Sequence record: NC_101837.1
Length of the DNA stretch: 64,000 nucleotides
From: a phage
Reading direction: 5' to 3' (one strand)
Shown here piece after piece: positions 1,450-8,173 of the stretch; the first letter of the stretch is position 1, and each line of letters starts with the position of its first letter. The position numbers were made by a program, and so were the translations under genes. The notes beneath the pieces are model-generated. The model was not told where the DNA came from. It did no database searches and was given only the letters and a program-made list of their open reading frames with translations.

Positions 1450-1479
1450 CCAAATAGAAAATCCCCGCCGAAGCGGGGG
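1450..1479 (-). terminator. rho-independent terminator (stem CCCCGC/GCGGGG, UUCG loop on the transcript, U-tract)
   Basis: hairpin 1463-1478 followed on minus strand by AUUUUCUAUUU; lies just after stop of 1491..1871. Confidence 0.5.
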
Positions 1480-1490
1480 TGTCTTAGAAA

Positions 1491-1871
1491 TTAATCGTAG
1501 TGTGCCAAAATCTCTCCATCGTTGCAAGTTCCCTCTACAAAGTTATGAAGATTCATGCACTCATCTTGATAGAAGAATTTACCGCTTTTCAGCCGTAGGC
1601 CAAACAACTCCGCATCTCCACGATGGCAAGCCTCTACAAGTTCATAGATTTCATACGGCAACTCTCCGTCGTCATGGAAGAACCCAGCCTTATCGTTGAC
1701 ATAGATGAAGAAATAATCACTACTGTCGCAAGCGTCCAATATTTTAAACCAGATTTCATCTACATCTTTTTCTCGGATATCGATCACGCAAGTGGAGCTG
1801 CATTCGTACTCCTTCTCCGGCTCCTCGGTCAATACCACCAGGTAGTTTCCCCGCTTACCTACTTTAGCCAT
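1491..1871 (-). CDS. hypothetical acidic protein
   Basis: ORF track 1491..1919; preferred start ATG 1869-1871 preceded by AAGGGGGG, which avoids a 38-nt overlap with the MoxR gene. Confidence 0.4.
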   Translation of the reverse strand: MAKVGKRGNYLVVLTEEPEKEYECSSTCVIDIREKDVDEIWFKILDACDSSDYFFIYVNDKAGFFHDDGELPYEIYELVEACHRGDAELFGLRLKSGKFFYQDECMNLHNFVEGTCNDGEILAHYD

Positions 1872-1881
1872 ACAACCCCCC

Positions 1882-3066
1882 TTAAGCTTTAGCCAAAATG
1901 GCGCTAAACTCTTCACCAAACTCTTTTACAATCTTCATCAGGTTTGGGTATGCTTTGATCAGCTGAGCAACAATCTTGTCACGCCCTTTACCGATAAGCA
2001 AGGCATTTCCTAAGGCATTAGGTTTCATCATCGCCATAAAGACTGAGAATACAAAATCTCGGTTCTCGTCCTTGAAGTTTTCCCAAAGGAAATCGAGGAA
2101 GTTTGCCACGCAGCTGACAAGATCTTCGTCTGAGATACTTGCATTTTCCATCATATTACGAATAGCGATACAACCTTCAGATCCAAGAATCCACAAAATG
2201 TCTGGCTGCTTAGGACCTACGTATTCTTTGCAGCCACCTGCCATAATCCTACCGATTTCCGGTAAATTGCGTTTCTTGGTGTGGTATGTCCAGATCTCTA
2301 CCGCTGCAGTGTGACCAATAGCACCTTGCAGAAGAACACGGGCCATAGCGTCAGAAATAATACCACTGTCAAAATCGTGCAAGATGTCAGATGCAGCAAC
2401 CCAAGATCGTGGTGTGGCAAAAGATGGACAATTAATCTCAGCCATAGCCTCATAATTATCAATAGCTGATGGAACTCTTTTCAGATACCCAATTACAGAG
2501 GAGTGAACCCCGTTGAGGAATGCGTAGTCCTCAATAAACACCTCTGCATTGCTTGTAACCTCTACAATGATAAAACGGTTAGCCAGAGGGGCTTCGAGCG
2601 CCGAAAGAACCGCACCATCTGTAGAACGGTTACCCGCAGCCACAAAAACAGAACCCTTAGGGAATGCATAGGTGCCGCACTTGTGGTCAAGCATAATTTG
2701 CATTGCAACCTTTTGCAGGTAGTTATCTGCATGAGTGAGCTCATCCAGAAAGATAATTCCGCTCCAGTCAGGATCCGCAGGCCAAAATTCTGGAATTGCA
2801 AACACTGTACGTGTAGTTCCATCCGCTTCTACAGGGATAGGTAGCCCAGATAAGTCGGCAGGATCTTTATCTGACAGTCGCACGTCAACAAGGTTGTCAT
2901 CTCGCTCACCGAACATATTATCAGCGATCTGCTTCATCACCTGGCTTTTACCCACACCCATTGGTCCCAAAATTAGGACAGATCGGCTATGACGTTGGGC
3001 AAACTGAATGATAGCTGGCAACTCACGGACAGTGATTTGACCACTTTCAAATACGTTTCTTGACAT
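1882..3066 (-). CDS. MoxR-like AAA+ ATPase (CobS/RavA-type)
   Basis: 394 aa; Walker A LILGPMGVGKS, Walker B IIFLDELTHA, sensor AAGNRS; start overlaps stop of upstream gene. Confidence 0.65.
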   Translation of the reverse strand: MSRNVFESGQITVRELPAIIQFAQRHSRSVLILGPMGVGKSQVMKQIADNMFGERDDNLVDVRLSDKDPADLSGLPIPVEADGTTRTVFAIPEFWPADPDWSGIIFLDELTHADNYLQKVAMQIMLDHKCGTYAFPKGSVFVAAGNRSTDGAVLSALEAPLANRFIIVEVTSNAEVFIEDYAFLNGVHSSVIGYLKRVPSAIDNYEAMAEINCPSFATPRSWVAASDILHDFDSGIISDAMARVLLQGAIGHTAAVEIWTYHTKKRNLPEIGRIMAGGCKEYVGPKQPDILWILGSEGCIAIRNMMENASISDEDLVSCVANFLDFLWENFKDENRDFVFSVFMAMMKPNALGNALLIGKGRDKIVAQLIKAYPNLMKIVKEFGEEFSAILAKA

Positions 3067-3371
3067 TAGTAAAAATCCTCTACTTGTGTGTAAGTGTTTT
3101 CAAAGTTTTCCAAAACAGATGTCACATCGGATCTGTCAATATCGTACACAACTTCCCAGTTGTATGCAACCCTTTCTGCTGTTGCTTCTTCAGGACTTAG
3201 CCGCCTGCTGGGGTGAAAGAATGCTGTAGTGCACCTTCTTAGTTGTCTTCCGGTTTTCCCATAACAATATCTGTGGATAACTTTGTCAAAATTTAACTCT
3301 TTTTCTGCACAAAGTTCGTGTTTCTGGTATAACATGTTTATTACTCTTTTAAGTGGCATCCTTGCCACCAC
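3066..3371 (-). CDS. hypothetical protein
   Basis: 101-aa ORF, tightly packed in minus-strand operon. Confidence 0.4.
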   Translation of the reverse strand: MVARMPLKRVINMLYQKHELCAEKELNFDKVIHRYCYGKTGRQLRRCTTAFFHPSRRLSPEEATAERVAYNWEVVYDIDRSDVTSVLENFENTYTQVEDFY

Positions 3372-3374
3372 CCG

Positions 3375-3755
3375 CTAGAATGCAGTCCGAATCCAGACAA
3401 GGTTCTTATCTGCCCAATCATAGAGGCAAGTCATTGCGCTATTAAATTGCTCGCACGGAGGATAATCTTCTTCCATCTGGCGCATAGCAGAGCCTTGGGG
3501 GTAAAGCTCCCGTGCTGCAAACCACGCATCGTAGTCATCCACGGTATCGAAGTAGTATACAACATCCTCCAACTCAGGATCGAACTTTGAATTATCAGGA
3601 TCCAGTTGTTCAGGGAACTTGGAGCGTAACTTGCCAGCCACAATACTTGCCAACTCGCTAACATGCTTATTGTCCCACTCTACTAGTTTCCCGTCTTCAG
3701 TGATGCGTCCTAACCACTGATCATGCAGGTCAACCGTTGTCTTCCACCGGGTCAT
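3375..3755 (-). CDS. hypothetical protein
   Basis: 126-aa ORF in operon, acidic. Confidence 0.4.
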   Translation of the reverse strand: MTRWKTTVDLHDQWLGRITEDGKLVEWDNKHVSELASIVAGKLRSKFPEQLDPDNSKFDPELEDVVYYFDTVDDYDAWFAARELYPQGSAMRQMEEDYPPCEQFNSAMTCLYDWADKNLVWIRTAF

Positions 3756-3757
3756 TA

Positions 3758-4015
3758 TCAGTCCACCTCTTCTTCTCGTTGTAGTTCAAGATACCCGTAG
3801 GTCTGGATATCTTCAAAAGTGTGGAACTCCCCATCTGCCGCTAAGGCACGAACAACTTGGCACAAAACCTTATGAGGAACTTCATCCAGACCCAGATTCA
3901 GTGCAGGGAACACCTTATCTAAGTCAACAAAATAAACGAACTGTAGCTCACCAGCTTCAAAAGGTGTATCTTCAATAAACATCTTCTCGGCATTAGTCAA
4001 GATCTGAACTTTCAT
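3758..4015 (-). CDS. hypothetical protein
   Basis: 85-aa ORF in operon. Confidence 0.4.
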   Translation of the reverse strand: MKVQILTNAEKMFIEDTPFEAGELQFVYFVDLDKVFPALNLGLDEVPHKVLCQVVRALAADGEFHTFEDIQTYGYLELQREEEVD

Positions 4016-4392
4016 TATTCTACCTCCTCTTCTTTTTCTTCGACATTAGTTTCAGAGCTACCCCACTCTGGAGTTTCAACCTCGATAGTAAACTCACGCA
4101 CTACACGGTAATTGCCCATGAAGCGCTCCACTTCGTCAAGGTTTATGGGGAGGCCATTGGCAACCAGGTCTGCAGCACCCTCTTCTACCAGGTAGTCCAG
4201 ATTGGCTTCCAAAGCTTCAGGCTCAAACCCTGTCAATGCAATCAGATAACCTTTCCCTTCATCAGGGAGGACAATACAGCCCAACTGATTTTCTTTAAAA
4301 AGACAGTGACCATCATTATTGATTGGGTGTTCATTGCAGTAAATAGCTGCACGATAAGTAACTTTAGACATCGGTAAGGCCTCCTTAGGCAA
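4015..4392 (-). CDS. hypothetical protein
   Basis: 125-aa ORF, start overlaps upstream stop. Confidence 0.4.
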   Translation of the reverse strand: MPKEALPMSKVTYRAAIYCNEHPINNDGHCLFKENQLGCIVLPDEGKGYLIALTGFEPEALEANLDYLVEEGAADLVANGLPINLDEVERFMGNYRVVREFTIEVETPEWGSSETNVEEKEEEVE

Positions 4393-4663
4393 TTGTCATT
4401 TTACATTCTTGAAATTTTAACACAAGACGGTGATTGTGTCTAGTGTCTAAAAAGATTTTTTCAACCATCAGGCACACGGTATAACCGTCCATCTTGTTAA
4501 CAACAAAATCTCCAGGGTGAGGGAGGATGTCTCCAGGGTTGGGGAAACATAGTCCACTCAGAAAGGCATCGTCAGTGGTGGACTTAATAGATTTCCACAC
4601 ACTGTCTGCCTGAACATGTTCACCGACGTAATATACATTACCACATGCCTTCATCATAGTCAA
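4385..4663 (-). CDS. hypothetical protein
   Basis: 92-aa ORF, overlapping neighbours by a few nt. Confidence 0.4.
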   Translation of the reverse strand: MTMMKACGNVYYVGEHVQADSVWKSIKSTTDDAFLSGLCFPNPGDILPHPGDFVVNKMDGYTVCLMVEKIFLDTRHNHRLVLKFQECKMTIA

Positions 4664-5559
4664 ATCCCCGCATAAATTAAACTTGTATCAGTATACTTCT
4701 TTAATGGGTAAATATCCTGTCCATAGATGCAGTCATTAAACACCTCATCTACCCAAAGGCTACACTTATATCCCATCATTTCTAAAACACCCATCTCTTC
4801 TTCGGTAAACTTATCACCGCTCTTGCAAGATGTCAATACCTCATTCTGTACTCTTGCTACCTCGAAGCGGTTATTGGCAATATCGCTATTGGCGATCAAA
4901 TACTCACCTAAAGGGTGTGCGGCATTAAAGATGCACAGTGGGCGGTTGACGTAATAGTCTCCAGGTGTATAAAAATTATTGAGGTCTTTCACTAGAACAT
5001 TCTTATCAGTCACTTCATTTATAACATCATGCATATCGCACATCTTTATATGTTTGAGGATTCCATCCCCCATCACAAAATAAAAACTTGCTGAGGCACT
5101 TTCGGCATAGATCTTACTAGATCCGTTGTAGTTGTATTTTACTCGGATGCTAACGGGGGTTTTTCCTGTCGCGTTAGCCATCATCCAAAGAAATGGCAGC
5201 TCATACTTCTCCTCTGAGGAAACAAAAGGTGAGGTAGCCAGAGATCGAAAACCTCCAGAGAAGTTGAAAGTTACAGAACCGCTCCGGCGGTATGATACCG
5301 CGTATTCTACTTTTATATCGACGTACCCGTTGGAATAGGTGTGTCCTTCATTATCTAAATATGTCCACTTATCAGACCCAGATACCAATCTACGCTCAAT
5401 AACCTTCATCACTACAGGAATTAGTGGGTTGGTACAAACCGCTTTTGAAGTAGCTTTATCATCTAAAGCCTCGTAAATTGCAGAAAGGATGTCCCCAGCT
5501 GAAAGATTGGTTGTTATGTCCTGTTTCCACCGCGTACTAAAACTGTTAAGATTTGCCAT
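4660..5559 (-). CDS. hypothetical protein (first gene of minus-strand early operon)
   Basis: 299-aa ORF; AGGAG upstream of ATG; immediately downstream of a sigma70-like promoter. Confidence 0.45.
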   Translation of the reverse strand: MANLNSFSTRWKQDITTNLSAGDILSAIYEALDDKATSKAVCTNPLIPVVMKVIERRLVSGSDKWTYLDNEGHTYSNGYVDIKVEYAVSYRRSGSVTFNFSGGFRSLATSPFVSSEEKYELPFLWMMANATGKTPVSIRVKYNYNGSSKIYAESASASFYFVMGDGILKHIKMCDMHDVINEVTDKNVLVKDLNNFYTPGDYYVNRPLCIFNAAHPLGEYLIANSDIANNRFEVARVQNEVLTSCKSGDKFTEEEMGVLEMMGYKCSLWVDEVFNDCIYGQDIYPLKKYTDTSLIYAGI

Positions 5560-5599
5560 AAGTAAGTGCTCCTATGTTAGTTTTCTTTCGAATGGGTGC

Positions 5600-5628
5600 A
5601 CTATATTGTGGAGTTAGAGTAAAGTCAA
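5600..5628 (-). promoter_or_regulatory. sigma70-like promoter (TTGACT-17-TATAGT) for minus-strand operon
   Basis: -35 at 5623-5628 and -10 at 5600-5605 read on minus strand, 17-bp spacer. Confidence 0.45.
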
Positions 5629-5641
5629 CACGTTTTTGATG

Positions 5642-5670
5642 TTGACATCTGTTGAGACAATTGATACGAT
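5642..5670 (+). promoter_or_regulatory. sigma70-like promoter (TTGACA-17-TACGAT), divergent from the minus-strand promoter
   Basis: -35 5642-5647, -10 5665-5670; the two -35 hexamers form an inverted repeat GTCAACA-N9-TGTTGAC (5624-5646). Confidence 0.4.
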
Positions 5671-5701
5671 TTCTTCACTTACAGAGCACGAGAGACGACT
5701 C

Positions 5702-6679
5702 ATGAATCTTGAAAAATATTATACACCAGAAGAGTTAGAGCGCTTGCTCAAAAAATATAGACGCAAACAGAATAACGCACGGAAACGAGATATAGAGTTC
5801 GACCTGTCATGGGAAGAATACCTCCTATTTGGTAAAAAACTTTTAGGGGAGGGGGTATGCGACTACACCCTTATACCTTTCGACATGCACACAGATGAAA
5901 ACGGACTGGGAAATCCTTTCTACCCATCTCTGGAGCGGATAGATGATGAAGGTCCTTACGCAATTGATAATTGTTGTGTGGTAGGGTTGAGGTGCAATGC
6001 TCTGAAAGACTGTCTGGTAGATAAAAAGACTGCAATCCTGATTAAAGACAAAACTGATCGAAAAATTGTCCAGCAGATGATGCTCCACCTGAGCGAAGAG
6101 CGTATGGAGAAATTGAAAGGTGATTATACTTTTGAAGATTTCATCTTGCAATACGGGACAGAAGAAGATAAACTAGCACTATTTGACGAAGAGGAGGAAG
6201 ATATGTCACCAATGCAGGACTTTAAAAATTTCATGGCTGATCGTGCAGCCAACAAACACATTTCAGACATCGTAAACGAGACTGTGGCAGAAGAAATTGA
6301 AGAACAGAACTCTGAAGAGGAAAAAGATCCTCAGGAGGTCGAAGAGGAGATTGCAGAAGAAGTTCCTGCACTGCCTGATGATGTTGAGATTGCTAAGGCT
6401 TACACTTTCTATTGTCAAACGTTCTACGATGCAGGTATGAAAGTTGATCTGTCGTTCAGCCAATTTAAGAGTTCGTATATTCGCAAATGCTGTGCTTTAA
6501 CTGGTGAACGTCTCGGAGCTGGACTTAAACCCCTGTTGGTGACCGACTGGAATAAAGGTTTCACTAAAGGAAACTTTATGGTAGTATCTCCAATTATGGA
6601 GAAAGCTATGACAGATCTTATGAAGACCACCCGCATGACAATGACCGAGTTGGCAGGTATTTTCAAACACGTTAAATAA
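5702..6679 (+). CDS. hypothetical protein with two repeated HNH_3-like modules and an acidic linker
   Basis: ORF track 5636..6679 begins at a TTG inside the promoter; first ATG after the promoter is 5702; repeated segments CDYTLIPFD...SLERIDDEGPYAIDNCCVVGLRCNALK and CALTGERL...LLVTDWNKGFTKGN; Glu/Asp-rich linker. Confidence 0.4.
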   Translation: MNLEKYYTPEELERLLKKYRRKQNNARKRDIEFDLSWEEYLLFGKKLLGEGVCDYTLIPFDMHTDENGLGNPFYPSLERIDDEGPYAIDNCCVVGLRCNALKDCLVDKKTAILIKDKTDRKIVQQMMLHLSEERMEKLKGDYTFEDFILQYGTEEDKLALFDEEEEDMSPMQDFKNFMADRAANKHISDIVNETVAEEIEEQNSEEEKDPQEVEEEIAEEVPALPDDVEIAKAYTFYCQTFYDAGMKVDLSFSQFKSSYIRKCCALTGERLGAGLKPLLVTDWNKGFTKGNFMVVSPIMEKAMTDLMKTTRMTMTELAGIFKHVK

Positions 6680-6712
6680 TGACAGGGGCCAATGGCCCCT
6701 TCTGGAGTTTTA

Positions 6713-8173
6713 ATGGATAGCAGAAGTTCAGAAATCATTGCCTCACAGAAAGATGATGCCCTGAGAATGTTGCAGGCTGCACGTATGTATCTCCTTGAAA
6801 AGCTGCCGTTTTATGGCACACTGCTGTCAGGGTTGCAGTTCGTAGAAAACCACACATGGTGCTCCACCATGGCAACCGACCATAAACGCATTTATTACAG
6901 CCCTGAGTTCATTATGGGATTGGCTGATGAACGCAAGGCTATTCTTAAGGCTTCTCTAACTGACGAGCAGTTTGAGATGGCTGAAGTTTTCTATTCCCCA
7001 AAATCTGTGAAAGAGGTGGCCTTCCTTCTGTCACATGAGGTGGGGCATATTATCTGTGATCACCTGGTCCGTGGTAAAAGCTTTGAGCCGGAACTGTTCA
7101 ATATTGCTTGTGATCACGTTATCAACACAGGTCTTGTGGTTGACTTTAGCAAGCCTCCTTGTGTTTTCTTCCCGAAGGGGAAAAGCACTACGTTCGTGAA
7201 AGGCAAGCCTTTTGGCTTCTTAGCTAACTGCTACTGCGACATGAAGTTTCATGGATGGATTGCTGAGAACGTCTATGCAGTTCTTGATAAGCAAAGAGAT
7301 CAGAATAACGGTAAAAGTAAGAGCGGTAAAGGTGAGAACTCTCAAGGAGATAAGCGACAAACCGATGATCACATGAGTGGGAACGGTGGCACCAGTGATG
7401 ATCTTGGAAAGGCTATGGGGTATGATCAGCCACAACCTGTAATCAGCCAATCTGATAAAGATCAGGCCATGCAGGACTCTGGTGACATGCTTGAGGCAGC
7501 AATGCAAGCTTCCGGAGGTCGTTGCCCTGAGGCGGTTCGTGAGTTTGTCAAGAATAGAGGTAAGCCTGTAATCAATTATATAGACATCATCAAGCAGCGT
7601 ATGTTGTCTAAAAGAAAGGCCGAACTGACCTACAGAAAACCTGGTCGCCGATCTGGGTCTTTGACCAGCACAATGCGAAAAGTCGGAGCTATAAACAAGA
7701 ACCAGCACGTTATTGTTCCTGGTCGTAATCCGGAAAACACTATAGATATTGTGGTGGCTTTAGACGTTTCTGGCTCGATCTCTCAAAGAACTTTAAAGAA
7801 AATGTTCAATGAAATCACCGGATTGTGCAATCTGTATAAAGAATTTAAGGTTACAATGTTCTGTTGGTCAACTGAGGTTGGAGAGGTTAAAGTATACACT
7901 CGCGGCAACATAGACGAAATGATCAACTATGAGGTCCACTCAACATGGGGAACAACAGCTGCTTGCGTGTTCGAGTATCTGGATGCCAACATACCAAATG
8001 CAAAAGATGTCATCGTCCTGACCGACCTATACTTTGAGCATAACTTTGAACAAAAGGCTGTTGACAACAAGTGGAAAAAGTACGATACTTTATGGGTTCT
8101 AACCGAAGGGTATAATAAAAATTATATCCCTAGCTTTGGTAAAACTGTGGAATTAATCGAGTACGCTAAGTAA
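6713..8173 (+). CDS. von Willebrand factor A domain protein with N-terminal HExxH metallopeptidase-like domain (DUF2201/CobT-like; usual MoxR partner)
   Basis: HEVGH motif; MIDAS motif ALDVSGSIS in C-terminal half; ATG 6713 preceded by TGGAG; upstream ATG 6692 sits in loop of hairpin 6685-6699. Confidence 0.6.
   Translation: MDSRSSEIIASQKDDALRMLQAARMYLLEKLPFYGTLLSGLQFVENHTWCSTMATDHKRIYYSPEFIMGLADERKAILKASLTDEQFEMAEVFYSPKSVKEVAFLLSHEVGHIICDHLVRGKSFEPELFNIACDHVINTGLVVDFSKPPCVFFPKGKSTTFVKGKPFGFLANCYCDMKFHGWIAENVYAVLDKQRDQNNGKSKSGKGENSQGDKRQTDDHMSGNGGTSDDLGKAMGYDQPQPVISQSDKDQAMQDSGDMLEAAMQASGGRCPEAVREFVKNRGKPVINYIDIIKQRMLSKRKAELTYRKPGRRSGSLTSTMRKVGAINKNQHVIVPGRNPENTIDIVVALDVSGSISQRTLKKMFNEITGLCNLYKEFKVTMFCWSTEVGEVKVYTRGNIDEMINYEVHSTWGTTAACVFEYLDANIPNAKDVIVLTDLYFEHNFEQKAVDNKWKKYDTLWVLTEGYNKNYIPSFGKTVELIEYAK

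Follow-up and report, generated by a model that had tools for sequence, protein, structure and literature searches.

The window analysed here is a stretch of 64,000 nucleotides (nt) of the phage record NC_101837.1, and within it we studied a locus at which a gene for a predicted MoxR-class AAA+ ATPase and a gene for a protein that joins a predicted metallopeptidase domain to a VWA domain lie on opposite strands, 3,646 nt apart. A 6.9-kb region was compared with Vequintavirus genomes and showed 96-98% identity to many of them, including slur16, PDX, AlexBoehm (Bas56) and FFH2, and the gene map of an annotated BASEL record is identical to that of the window. The window is from an rV5-like Vequintavirus, a coliphage with a non-jumbo genome of 137 kb, and the genes of the locus correspond to gp3 to gp12 in the rV5 numbering, which we use throughout (Table 1). 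An earlier note on this DNA had described the ATPase and VWA genes as a pair split over 3.6 kb and two strands; the listing of open reading frames (ORFs) contains every ORF that it named, where it had placed them, and agrees with its distance and strands. We predict that the two genes encode cognate partners, namely the phage module known from N4 as gp24/gp25, and that this module was probably split by a single inversion.

The ATPase (gp4), which is 100% identical to its homologue in phage rV5, carries a Walker A motif (GPMGVGKS, nt 2944-2967) and a Walker B motif (IIFLDE, nt 2740-2757), both read from the DNA, together with sensor 1 (N146), an arginine finger (R164 in PLANRF) and sensor 2 (R220 in ATPRSW). 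All of these catalytic motifs are invariant in 36 homologues with identities down to 29%. Fifteen of the 36 aligned homologues, at 31-35% identity, matched the Pfam families AAA_5 (best 2.4e-9) and AAA_3 (1.2e-8), and five of the 36 matched the bpMoxR model. When an AlphaFold2 (AF2) model of the ATPase (predicted local distance difference test score, pLDDT, 83) was compared with the PDB by Foldseek, ranks 1-16 were occupied by NorQ, including NorQ-NorD complexes, and CbbQ2, with E-values of 1e-7 to 2e-6 and a target-normalised template modelling score of ~0.6, and the MoxR protein CHU_0153 (2r44) followed at rank 23. The model contains a beta-hairpin (residues 76-89, pLDDT only 50-73) between beta2 and Walker B, which is the position of the helix-2 insert, and a short hairpin (129-134, pLDDT ~85) preceding sensor 1, two features that mark the AAA+ clade of MoxR, midasin and dynein; the AAA+ core is then followed by a helical C-terminal extension of ~115 amino acids (aa). 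A direct sequence search of the PDB with the ATPase returned ClpB, ClpC and p97, at the level of the P-loop only. Because the ATPase itself scores below the AAA_5 cut-off, its assignment to MoxR, which the earlier note had also made, is based on its homologues, through a transitive Pfam link, and on the fold. On the strength of homologues and model, gp4 is predicted to be a MoxR-class ATPase whose nearest relatives are of the CbbQ/NorQ type and which has a phage-specific helical C-terminal extension.

The gene for the VWA protein (gp12) starts with GGAG-ATG at nt 6713, in agreement with the GenBank annotation and with the start assumed previously, and an alternative start at nt 6692, chosen by an ORF tool, falls within a hairpin. 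Residue numbers in this paragraph are counted from nt 6692, and the numbering of the 486-aa protein is obtained by subtracting 7. Both Pfam domains were recovered above their cut-offs and in the usual N-to-C order: DUF2201_N (PF13203) at residues 95-321 (3.4e-28; 99.5 bits, cut-off 23.2) and DUF2201 (PF09967) at residues 353-488 (3.6e-11; 43.7 bits, cut-off 26.4). The family bears the description 'predicted metal-dependent peptidase'. The DNA encodes HEVGHIICDH at nt 7034-7063 and the metal-ion-dependent adhesion site (MIDAS) motif DVSGS at nt 7763-7777, plus GT and TD. Across 35 phage and bacterial sequences, H115, E116, H119 and H124 (HExxHxxxxH) as well as D141 are invariant, and so is the complete MIDAS set of D358, S360, S362, T421 and D445. 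Fold searches recovered the Rossmann-like VWA fold, with the VWA domain of NorD among the matches; this domain dominated both searches, for which whole models served as the query, and the N-terminal peptidase fold was not recovered. A profile comparison matched the minimal metallopeptidase selecase with an E-value of 0.0038, and M48 peptidases fell just short of significance. From the Pfam match, the invariant motif and the selecase profile match, the N-terminal domain is predicted to be a zincin-type metallopeptidase. The VWA protein found no sequence match in the PDB. The HExxH and MIDAS motifs attributed to this protein by the earlier note are thus both in place. Profiles of the ATPase and DUF2201 families found one copy of each in the window, and its description as the only VWA protein holds to that extent; other VWA families were not screened window-wide.

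We rejected the label 'HNH endonuclease' attached to phrog_1314, since the VWA protein carries DUF2201 domains only, and in many records this protein is misannotated as 'HNH endonuclease', 'anti-sigma factor' or 'DNA repair ATPase'. The rV5 reference (NC_011041 / DQ832317) has the VWA gene broken in two, as gp12 (441 aa) and gp13 (81 aa), and the tblastn alignment falls into two pieces. The gene is one intact 486-aa ORF in the window and in most relatives, and the break stems from a frameshift of the rV5 isolate or from an error in sequencing.

To describe the gene order around homologues of the pair, 80 viral loci with an ATPase homologue were gathered by ATPase alignment, and both genes were placed by tblastn. 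An ATPase homologue from an environmental phage sits directly upstream of a gene with DUF2201_N and DUF2201. This arrangement is nearly universal: among the 68 environmental viral loci with room, defined as more than ~200 nt of sequence downstream of the ATPase, the DUF2201 gene begins 84-566 nt 3' of the ATPase on the same strand in 67. The DUF2201 gene likewise comes after the ATPase gene in RaK2, in cyanophage S-TIM5, in Bacillus phage PBS1 and in the N4-like phage Jura, where one small ORF lies between gp24 and gp25. On bacterial chromosomes of sulfur-oxidising Gamma- and Betaproteobacteria, 71 of the 74 loci with room have the two genes adjacent and the remaining three have one gene in between; this survey was run on the bacterial DUF2201 sub-alignment and covers one clade only. 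Both families are also present in similar numbers in the phage database (820 records for the ATPase and 724 for the VWA protein) and in the same genera, and among genomes with room one member without the other was seen only at locus L041, which has no more than 1 kb of downstream sequence. In N4-likes, tblastn with both proteins lands on features annotated gp24 and gp25, and the gp24 and gp25 ORFs of Jura score 191 and 284 bits with the two profiles. Because the genes adjoin each other in viral and bacterial loci and share their genera, we predict that they encode cognate partners; the idea of a split pair is thereby upheld, as the partners are adjacent nearly everywhere else and neither is routinely absent.

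The chromosomal pair (L089, L097-L176) is vertically conserved with 53-97% identity, and its hosts include Thioalkalivibrio, Thiohalomonas, Thiobacillus, Sedimenticola, Hydrogenophilus and a Solemya symbiont. In at least 31 bacterial loci, a third conserved gene for an uncharacterised protein of ~370 aa lies directly downstream of DUF2201. Clustering of the neighbours in the bacterial loci, which is noisy owing to spurious ORFs in high-GC DNA, found only the ATPase and this 370-aa gene to be recurrent. We looked for a phage counterpart of the ~370-aa gene and found none; in Seunavirus and Henunavirus the ATPase operon opens with a gene that also encodes 370 aa, which was rejected because it shares the length and no homology.

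Certain neighbours recur beside the phage pair. Thymidylate synthase or dCTP deaminase genes lie within ~1-3 kb of it in four distant phage lineages (L002/L003, Jura (L093), RaK2 (L094) and S-TIM5 (L095)), and rIIA/rIIB are found a few kb from it in both N4-likes and rV5-likes. These neighbours may represent ancient synteny of a pre-late module or may be a functional hint. The window has no nucleotide-metabolism or replication genes near the pair.

Compared with N4 gp24/gp25, both proteins of the window are homologous and have the same domain content, at an identity of only ~21-27%. In N4-likes the two genes are co-directional neighbours, or have no more than a single small ORF between them, and lie in the middle, replication and nucleotide-metabolism region, whereas in the window they are divergent and 3.6 kb apart. 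The same combination is also known from jumbo phages. RaK2, which we take to be a member of their group 2.2, has genes for homologues of both proteins next to each other. The architecture of the group 2.2 'chaperone-cochaperone' pair, a MoxR ATPase and a vWA protein with an N-terminal metallopeptidase, is the same as in the window (PMC7824862). A further virus-encoded combination of MoxR and VWA proteins is p618 and p892 of Acidianus two-tailed virus, which we compared by its description in PMC7824862; this virus is archaeal, its VWA partner has no peptidase domain, and its pair has a role in extracellular tail development. The nearest solved ATPase folds belong to the NorQ/NorD and CbbQ/CbbO systems (Foldseek E-value 1e-7), at 16-23% identity and with a conserved MIDAS, and the order of ATPase gene, then VWA gene, recurs in relatives. 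A peptidase domain is absent from NorD and CbbO, which serve in metal insertion or Rubisco activation, whereas the phage partner is predicted to have one, and the phage ATPase has the additional helical C-terminal region compared with NorQ and CbbQ. FtsH joins an AAA+ motor of the classical AAA clade and an HExxH zincin in one membrane-anchored chain. The likeness to FtsH is a functional analogy only and not family membership, as the phage pair would consist of two soluble chains with a VWA bridge and a MoxR-class motor.

The split and divergent order, with 3.6-3.9 kb between the genes, was found only in the rV5-related clade (L001, L004-L010, GAP31 and pEp_SNUABM_01), which comprises Vequintavirus, a sister clade at 73% identity, a Mydovirus-like contig, Seunavirus GAP31 and Henunavirus pEp_SNUABM_01. 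Certrevirus F1M1E and contig L011, the ATPases of which are 35% identical to that of the window, have kept the adjacent order. In L011, the hydrolase on the minus strand and further minus-strand genes are followed by a promoter and strand switch, a 213-aa gene, the ATPase and the VWA gene on the plus strand. If the segment from the switch to the ATPase of L011 is inverted, the resulting order is hydrolase, further genes, ATPase, upstream genes, promoter and VWA gene, which is exactly the order of the window. Because the inverted L011 reproduces this order, one inversion with a breakpoint in the ~100-nt spacer is sufficient. The ancestral and near-universal order would have been the ATPase and, ~100 nt later on the same strand, its partner; an inversion reaching from the promoter to the ATPase gene would then have cut the pair within the short spacer, in the common ancestor that Vequintavirus shares with its Seunavirus, Henunavirus and Mydovirus-like relatives. 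Since then, the ATPase would read toward the cell-wall hydrolase and rIIA/rIIB genes, and its partner, behind the Srd-like gene gp11, would read the opposite way from the same back-to-back promoter region. Judged from the unrooted gene order in a handful of lineages, the pair was probably split onto opposite strands by a single inversion. Every split genome has the Srd-like gene ahead of the VWA gene, and this gene was not detected in the adjacent-order genomes examined.

Sigma-70-like promoter candidates are present on both strands between gp10 and gp11, where divergent promoters had been proposed at ~5.6 kb, and their hexamers are unchanged in the relatives L004 and L005, with varying flanking bases. 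These back-to-back candidates would drive the two divergent operons, and bidirectional promoters have been described between rV5 genes 10 and 11 (PMC3606486). The -35 hexamers are also the arms of an inverted repeat, GTCAACA-N9-TGTTGAC (5623-5647), which could be the site of a dimeric regulator. The motif TGGTAAAATA was found upstream of late genes in the rV5 paper, and in the window, allowing at most one mismatch, 20 copies were observed compared with 5.65 expected, a number that none of 100 shuffles reached. Seventeen of the 20 copies are on the minus strand at 18705-58136, in the structural region. This clustering supports the motif as a real late signal. A motif scan of the window found no copy upstream of either operon. 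N4 gp24/gp25 are middle transcripts and two of only 14 N4-like core genes (PMC4193335), and we found no expression data for the rV5-like phage group in the searchable literature. From the sigma-70 promoter candidates, the absence of the late motif and the N4 homologues, we infer that both genes are likely expressed pre-late; for N4 the pre-late timing is documented and for the window pair it is inferred. The earlier placement of both genes as early is plausible on these grounds. This timing weakens a purely late role and is compatible with one in virion assembly, against which it had been held.

By analogy with NorQ/NorD and CbbQ/CbbO, a hexamer of gp4 would dock the VWA domain of gp12, and ATP hydrolysis would remodel gp12 or a client held at its MIDAS site. 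This remodelling would gate or feed the fused peptidase, such that the two proteins would form a two-chain ATP-regulated protease or chaperone. In NorQ/NorD, the hexamer pore receives a finger of the VWA domain and ATP hydrolysis remodels a linker of the partner (PMC13036017); no pore finger like that of NorD was identified in the model of the phage VWA protein. By the same analogy, two parts of gp12 are candidates for the engaged segment, namely a basic and conserved linker, TYRKPGRRS, in which an arginine is nearly invariant, and a disordered Gly/Asp/Lys-rich loop at residues 209-235.

Overall, we consider it likely that the locus holds a pair of the N4 gp24/gp25 type that was split by an inversion, is expressed pre-late and acts as an ATP-regulated protease or chaperone. 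Several points weigh against this. No experiments on the ATPase-VWA pair in rV5, N4 or any other phage were found in the literature searched; in the CRISPRi-ART paper, where the rV5-like EdH4 is among the phages covered, the main text has no mention of MoxR, vWA or ATPase, and the passages on EdH4 concern the capsid and rII genes only. The Pfam scores of the ATPase itself are all below threshold (AAA_5 16.7 bits with a cut-off of 22; no match to AAA_3), and a profile search of PDB sequences with the ATPase family led to midasin and to no MoxR proteins. The timing is deduced from sequence motifs only, the inversion model draws on gene order in few lineages without a rooted phylogeny, and a functional divergence of the two genes after the split is possible in principle. 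A more specific version, to which we give tentative and on balance doubtful standing, is that the pair is a two-chain ATP-regulated metalloprotease which would act pre-late on a non-structural client, as a core activity common to N4-like, rV5-like and RaK2-like phages and to other large phages, and that it was inherited from or is shared with the chromosomal system of sulfur-oxidising proteobacteria. If the two-chain protease reading is true, the rV5 lineage shows that both genes stay functional in separate transcripts.

Other roles must be weighed against this one. For the pair of MoxR ATPase and metallopeptidase-vWA protein in group 2.2 jumbo phages, a role in virion assembly was proposed by analogy with p618/p892 of Acidianus two-tailed virus (Iyer et al. 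2021, PMC7824862), and the pair of the window could in the same way act as a chaperone in virion assembly and process structural proteins by proteolysis. The S-TIM5 pair adjoins Hsp20 and genes labelled virion structural, RaK2 has a head completion gene 5 kb upstream of its pair, virion proteins of roseophages are encoded near the gp24/gp25 homologues (PMC4193335), and the pair is mostly found in large phage genomes of 58-350 kb. We nevertheless regard this role as rather unlikely for the window, which differs from the jumbo phages in its genome size, its split pair and its non-late operons: both genes are in operons of the sigma-70 type without the late motif of the structural region, N4 gp24/gp25 are middle transcripts (PMC4193335), and in N4-likes, RaK2 and environmental phages the pair has dCTP deaminase, thymidylate synthase and 5'-3' exonuclease as neighbours. 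The homologues on bacterial chromosomes, moreover, cannot serve virions. In the rV5 table, gp4 and gp12 are not flagged as structural proteins detected by mass spectrometry, a weak point, since chaperones need not be packaged. The nucleotide-metabolism neighbours just named, of which thymidylate synthase or dCTP deaminase recurs near the pair in N4-like, RaK2, S-TIM5 and environmental phages, would also suit a factor for the maturation of, or metal-cofactor insertion into, a nucleotide-metabolism metalloenzyme of the phage or its host, in the manner of NorQD, CbbQO, CoxDE and CobST. The closest structural relatives, NorQ and CbbQ, are enzyme-maturation or activase motors with VWA partners, and the Sulfurivermis pair, the two genes of which are adjacent on the chromosome, has thioredoxin and ferrochelatase as neighbours. 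However, the invariant and apparently active HExxH domain has no role in MoxR/VWA systems known to insert metals, the window has no nucleotide-metabolism gene nearby, the association with neighbours may be inherited synteny, and the only conserved neighbour of the bacterial loci is the uncharacterised ~370-aa protein, all of which makes a maturation factor improbable.

The earlier note had conjectured host takeover or counter-defence, in which the pair would degrade or remodel a host protein or defence system early in infection. The setting among small acidic ORFans, with an Srd-like anti-sigma candidate alongside, rIIA/rIIB downstream, which counter Rex exclusion (PMC11879866), and promoters of the pre-late type, speaks for it. 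PADLOC gave no significant match, with P-loop-level similarity only for the ATPase (E-values 0.003-0.007) and none for five other tested proteins, and the adjoining ORFans are not conserved together with the pair. Anti-defence genes that are known tend to be accessory and patchy in distribution. The pair, by contrast, consists of vertically conserved core genes in Schitoviridae, in distant phages with hosts from Bacillus to cyanobacteria, and on bacterial chromosomes, into which a counter-defence role fits poorly; we found no positive evidence for the conjecture and give it little probability. Finally, the pairing might be historical in rV5-like phages, with each gene acting alone or with other partners. 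The two genes are in separate transcription units, in which the ATPase is the seventh gene and the VWA protein the second, and a hairpin precedes the VWA gene, such that stoichiometric co-translation is lost. Against this uncoupling, every split genome examined, from at least four genera, has both genes intact and no catalytic residue missing, the two remain 3.6-3.9 kb apart while flanking one promoter region, and no genome examined with room has one gene only, except for locus L041. We therefore consider it very improbable, and the two-chain protease or chaperone of the N4 type is the reading that we prefer.

Several elements of this account are already known, namely N4 gp24/gp25 as core genes, the MoxR-vWA-peptidase pair of jumbo phages (PMC7824862) and the rV5 annotation of 2013, in which gp4 is a MoxR ATPase and gp12 carries DUF2201_N (PMC3606486). 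To these, the present work adds that the two rV5 genes are explicitly joined as that pair; it also gives the reach of the adjacency rule, a clade of bacterial counterparts and an inversion as the probable origin of the split. The finding is a gene-order variant and as such minor, with no new system or mechanism. The homologues of gp24/gp25 are nonetheless among the very few genes common to all N4-likes, recur in rV5-like, jumbo, cyanobacterial and Bacillus phages, and have been assigned no function in the literature searched. Recognising rV5 gp4/gp12 as a pair corrects a widespread misannotation of the VWA protein, and the locus shows that the module tolerates gene separation. Tractable Escherichia coli phages (rV5, EdH4 and the Bas56 type of BASEL) permit the independent knock-down of the two genes, while the locus alone makes the function of this widespread module no more tractable than N4 does.

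Table 1. Features of the locus in the window, ordered by position; gp numbers are those of rV5.
Feature	Position (nt)	Strand	Length (aa)	Remarks
Terminator-like hairpin	1463..1478	-		CCCCGCTTCGGCGGGG then ATTTTCT; closes ATPase operon; minimum free energy -13.6 kcal/mol
gp3	1491..1871	-	126	Acidic; phrog_12370; eighth gene of ATPase operon, 3' of ATPase
gp4, predicted MoxR-class AAA+ ATPase	1882..3066	-	394	N4 gp24 family; phrog_1297, match 2e-110
gp5	3066-3335	-		ORFan in ATPase operon
gp6	3375-3755	-		ORFan in ATPase operon
gp7	3758-4015	-		ORFan in ATPase operon
gp8	4015-4371	-		ORFan in ATPase operon
gp9	4385-4657	-		ORFan in ATPase operon
gp10	4660-5559	-	299	ORFan in ATPase operon
Promoter candidate TTGACT-17-TATAGT	5628-5600	-		Sigma-70-like, 10/12 matches
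Promoter candidate TTGACA-17-TACGAT	5642-5670	+		Sigma-70-like, 10/12 matches; upstream TG
gp11, Srd-like / endonuclease VII-like protein	5702..6679	+	325	First gene of plus-strand operon
GC-rich perfect hairpin	6684..6700	+		AGGGGCCAATGGCCCCT; -14.0 kcal/mol; between Srd-like stop codon and VWA ribosome-binding site
gp12, predicted zincin-like metallopeptidase + VWA/MIDAS	6713..8173	+	486	N4 gp25 family; DUF2201_N + DUF2201; phrog_1314

The layout of the two operons differs in two respects from that first described. The ATPase does not end a seven-gene operon, as gp3 comes after it and brings the operon to eight genes, followed by the terminator-like hairpin. On the other strand the VWA gene was correctly assigned, and the Srd-like gene between the promoter and the VWA gene had been overlooked. 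The hairpin AGGGGCCAATGGCCCCT has no T-tract and could serve in transcription attenuation, as a processing site or in mRNA stabilisation.

The six ORFans and the ATPase are separated by intergenic gaps or overlaps of 1-39 nt. In agreement with the earlier view that the six small proteins have no recognisable domains, none of them matched Pfam, and their PHROG matches were solely to families of unknown function. Four of them (gp6, gp7, gp8 and gp10) are acidic with isoelectric points (pI) of 4.2-5.2, and gp5 and gp9 have a pI of 5.6 and 6.4, respectively. For gp10, two related clusters were found among 1.84 billion representatives. gp6 is detectable in Mydovirus-like and Seunavirus loci, the other five stop at the Vequintavirus/phAPEC8-like level, and none of the six was found in the adjacent-pair genomes examined. 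From this distribution, the six genes appear to be fast-evolving clade-specific ORFans and co-transcribed passengers that are not part of the conserved module, and their previous grouping with the pair does not hold, given that only gp6 occurs in sister genera and none with adjacent pairs. Two database labels, 'alpha-1,3-fucosyltransferase' for the ORFan gp10 and 'ATPase' for gp5 (phrog_13164), were rejected for want of Pfam or NCBIfam support.

The Srd-like protein gp11 matched phrog_3118 (1e-110), PHROGs for Srd anti-sigma or 'decoy of host sigma70' proteins (1e-9 to 1e-14) and also an endonuclease VII PHROG, and it was called a probable Srd homologue in the rV5 paper (PMC3606486). By eye, it consists of two endonuclease-VII-like modules, seemingly without catalytic histidines, with a very acidic linker between them. 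gp3 was reported to resemble the phage T5 protein T5.083 (rV5 paper, Table S3) and is 56% identical in the phAPEC8-like locus L006.

In addition to Vequintavirus genomes, 16 unannotated records labelled 'Campylobacter phage' (host C. jejuni; including MG065646 and MG065647) matched the region at >90% identity, and the eight of these that were listed are 96.7-97.9% identical across the whole 6.9 kb. These Campylobacter labels on Vequintavirus-like records suggest mislabelled or contaminated phage stocks in that submission.

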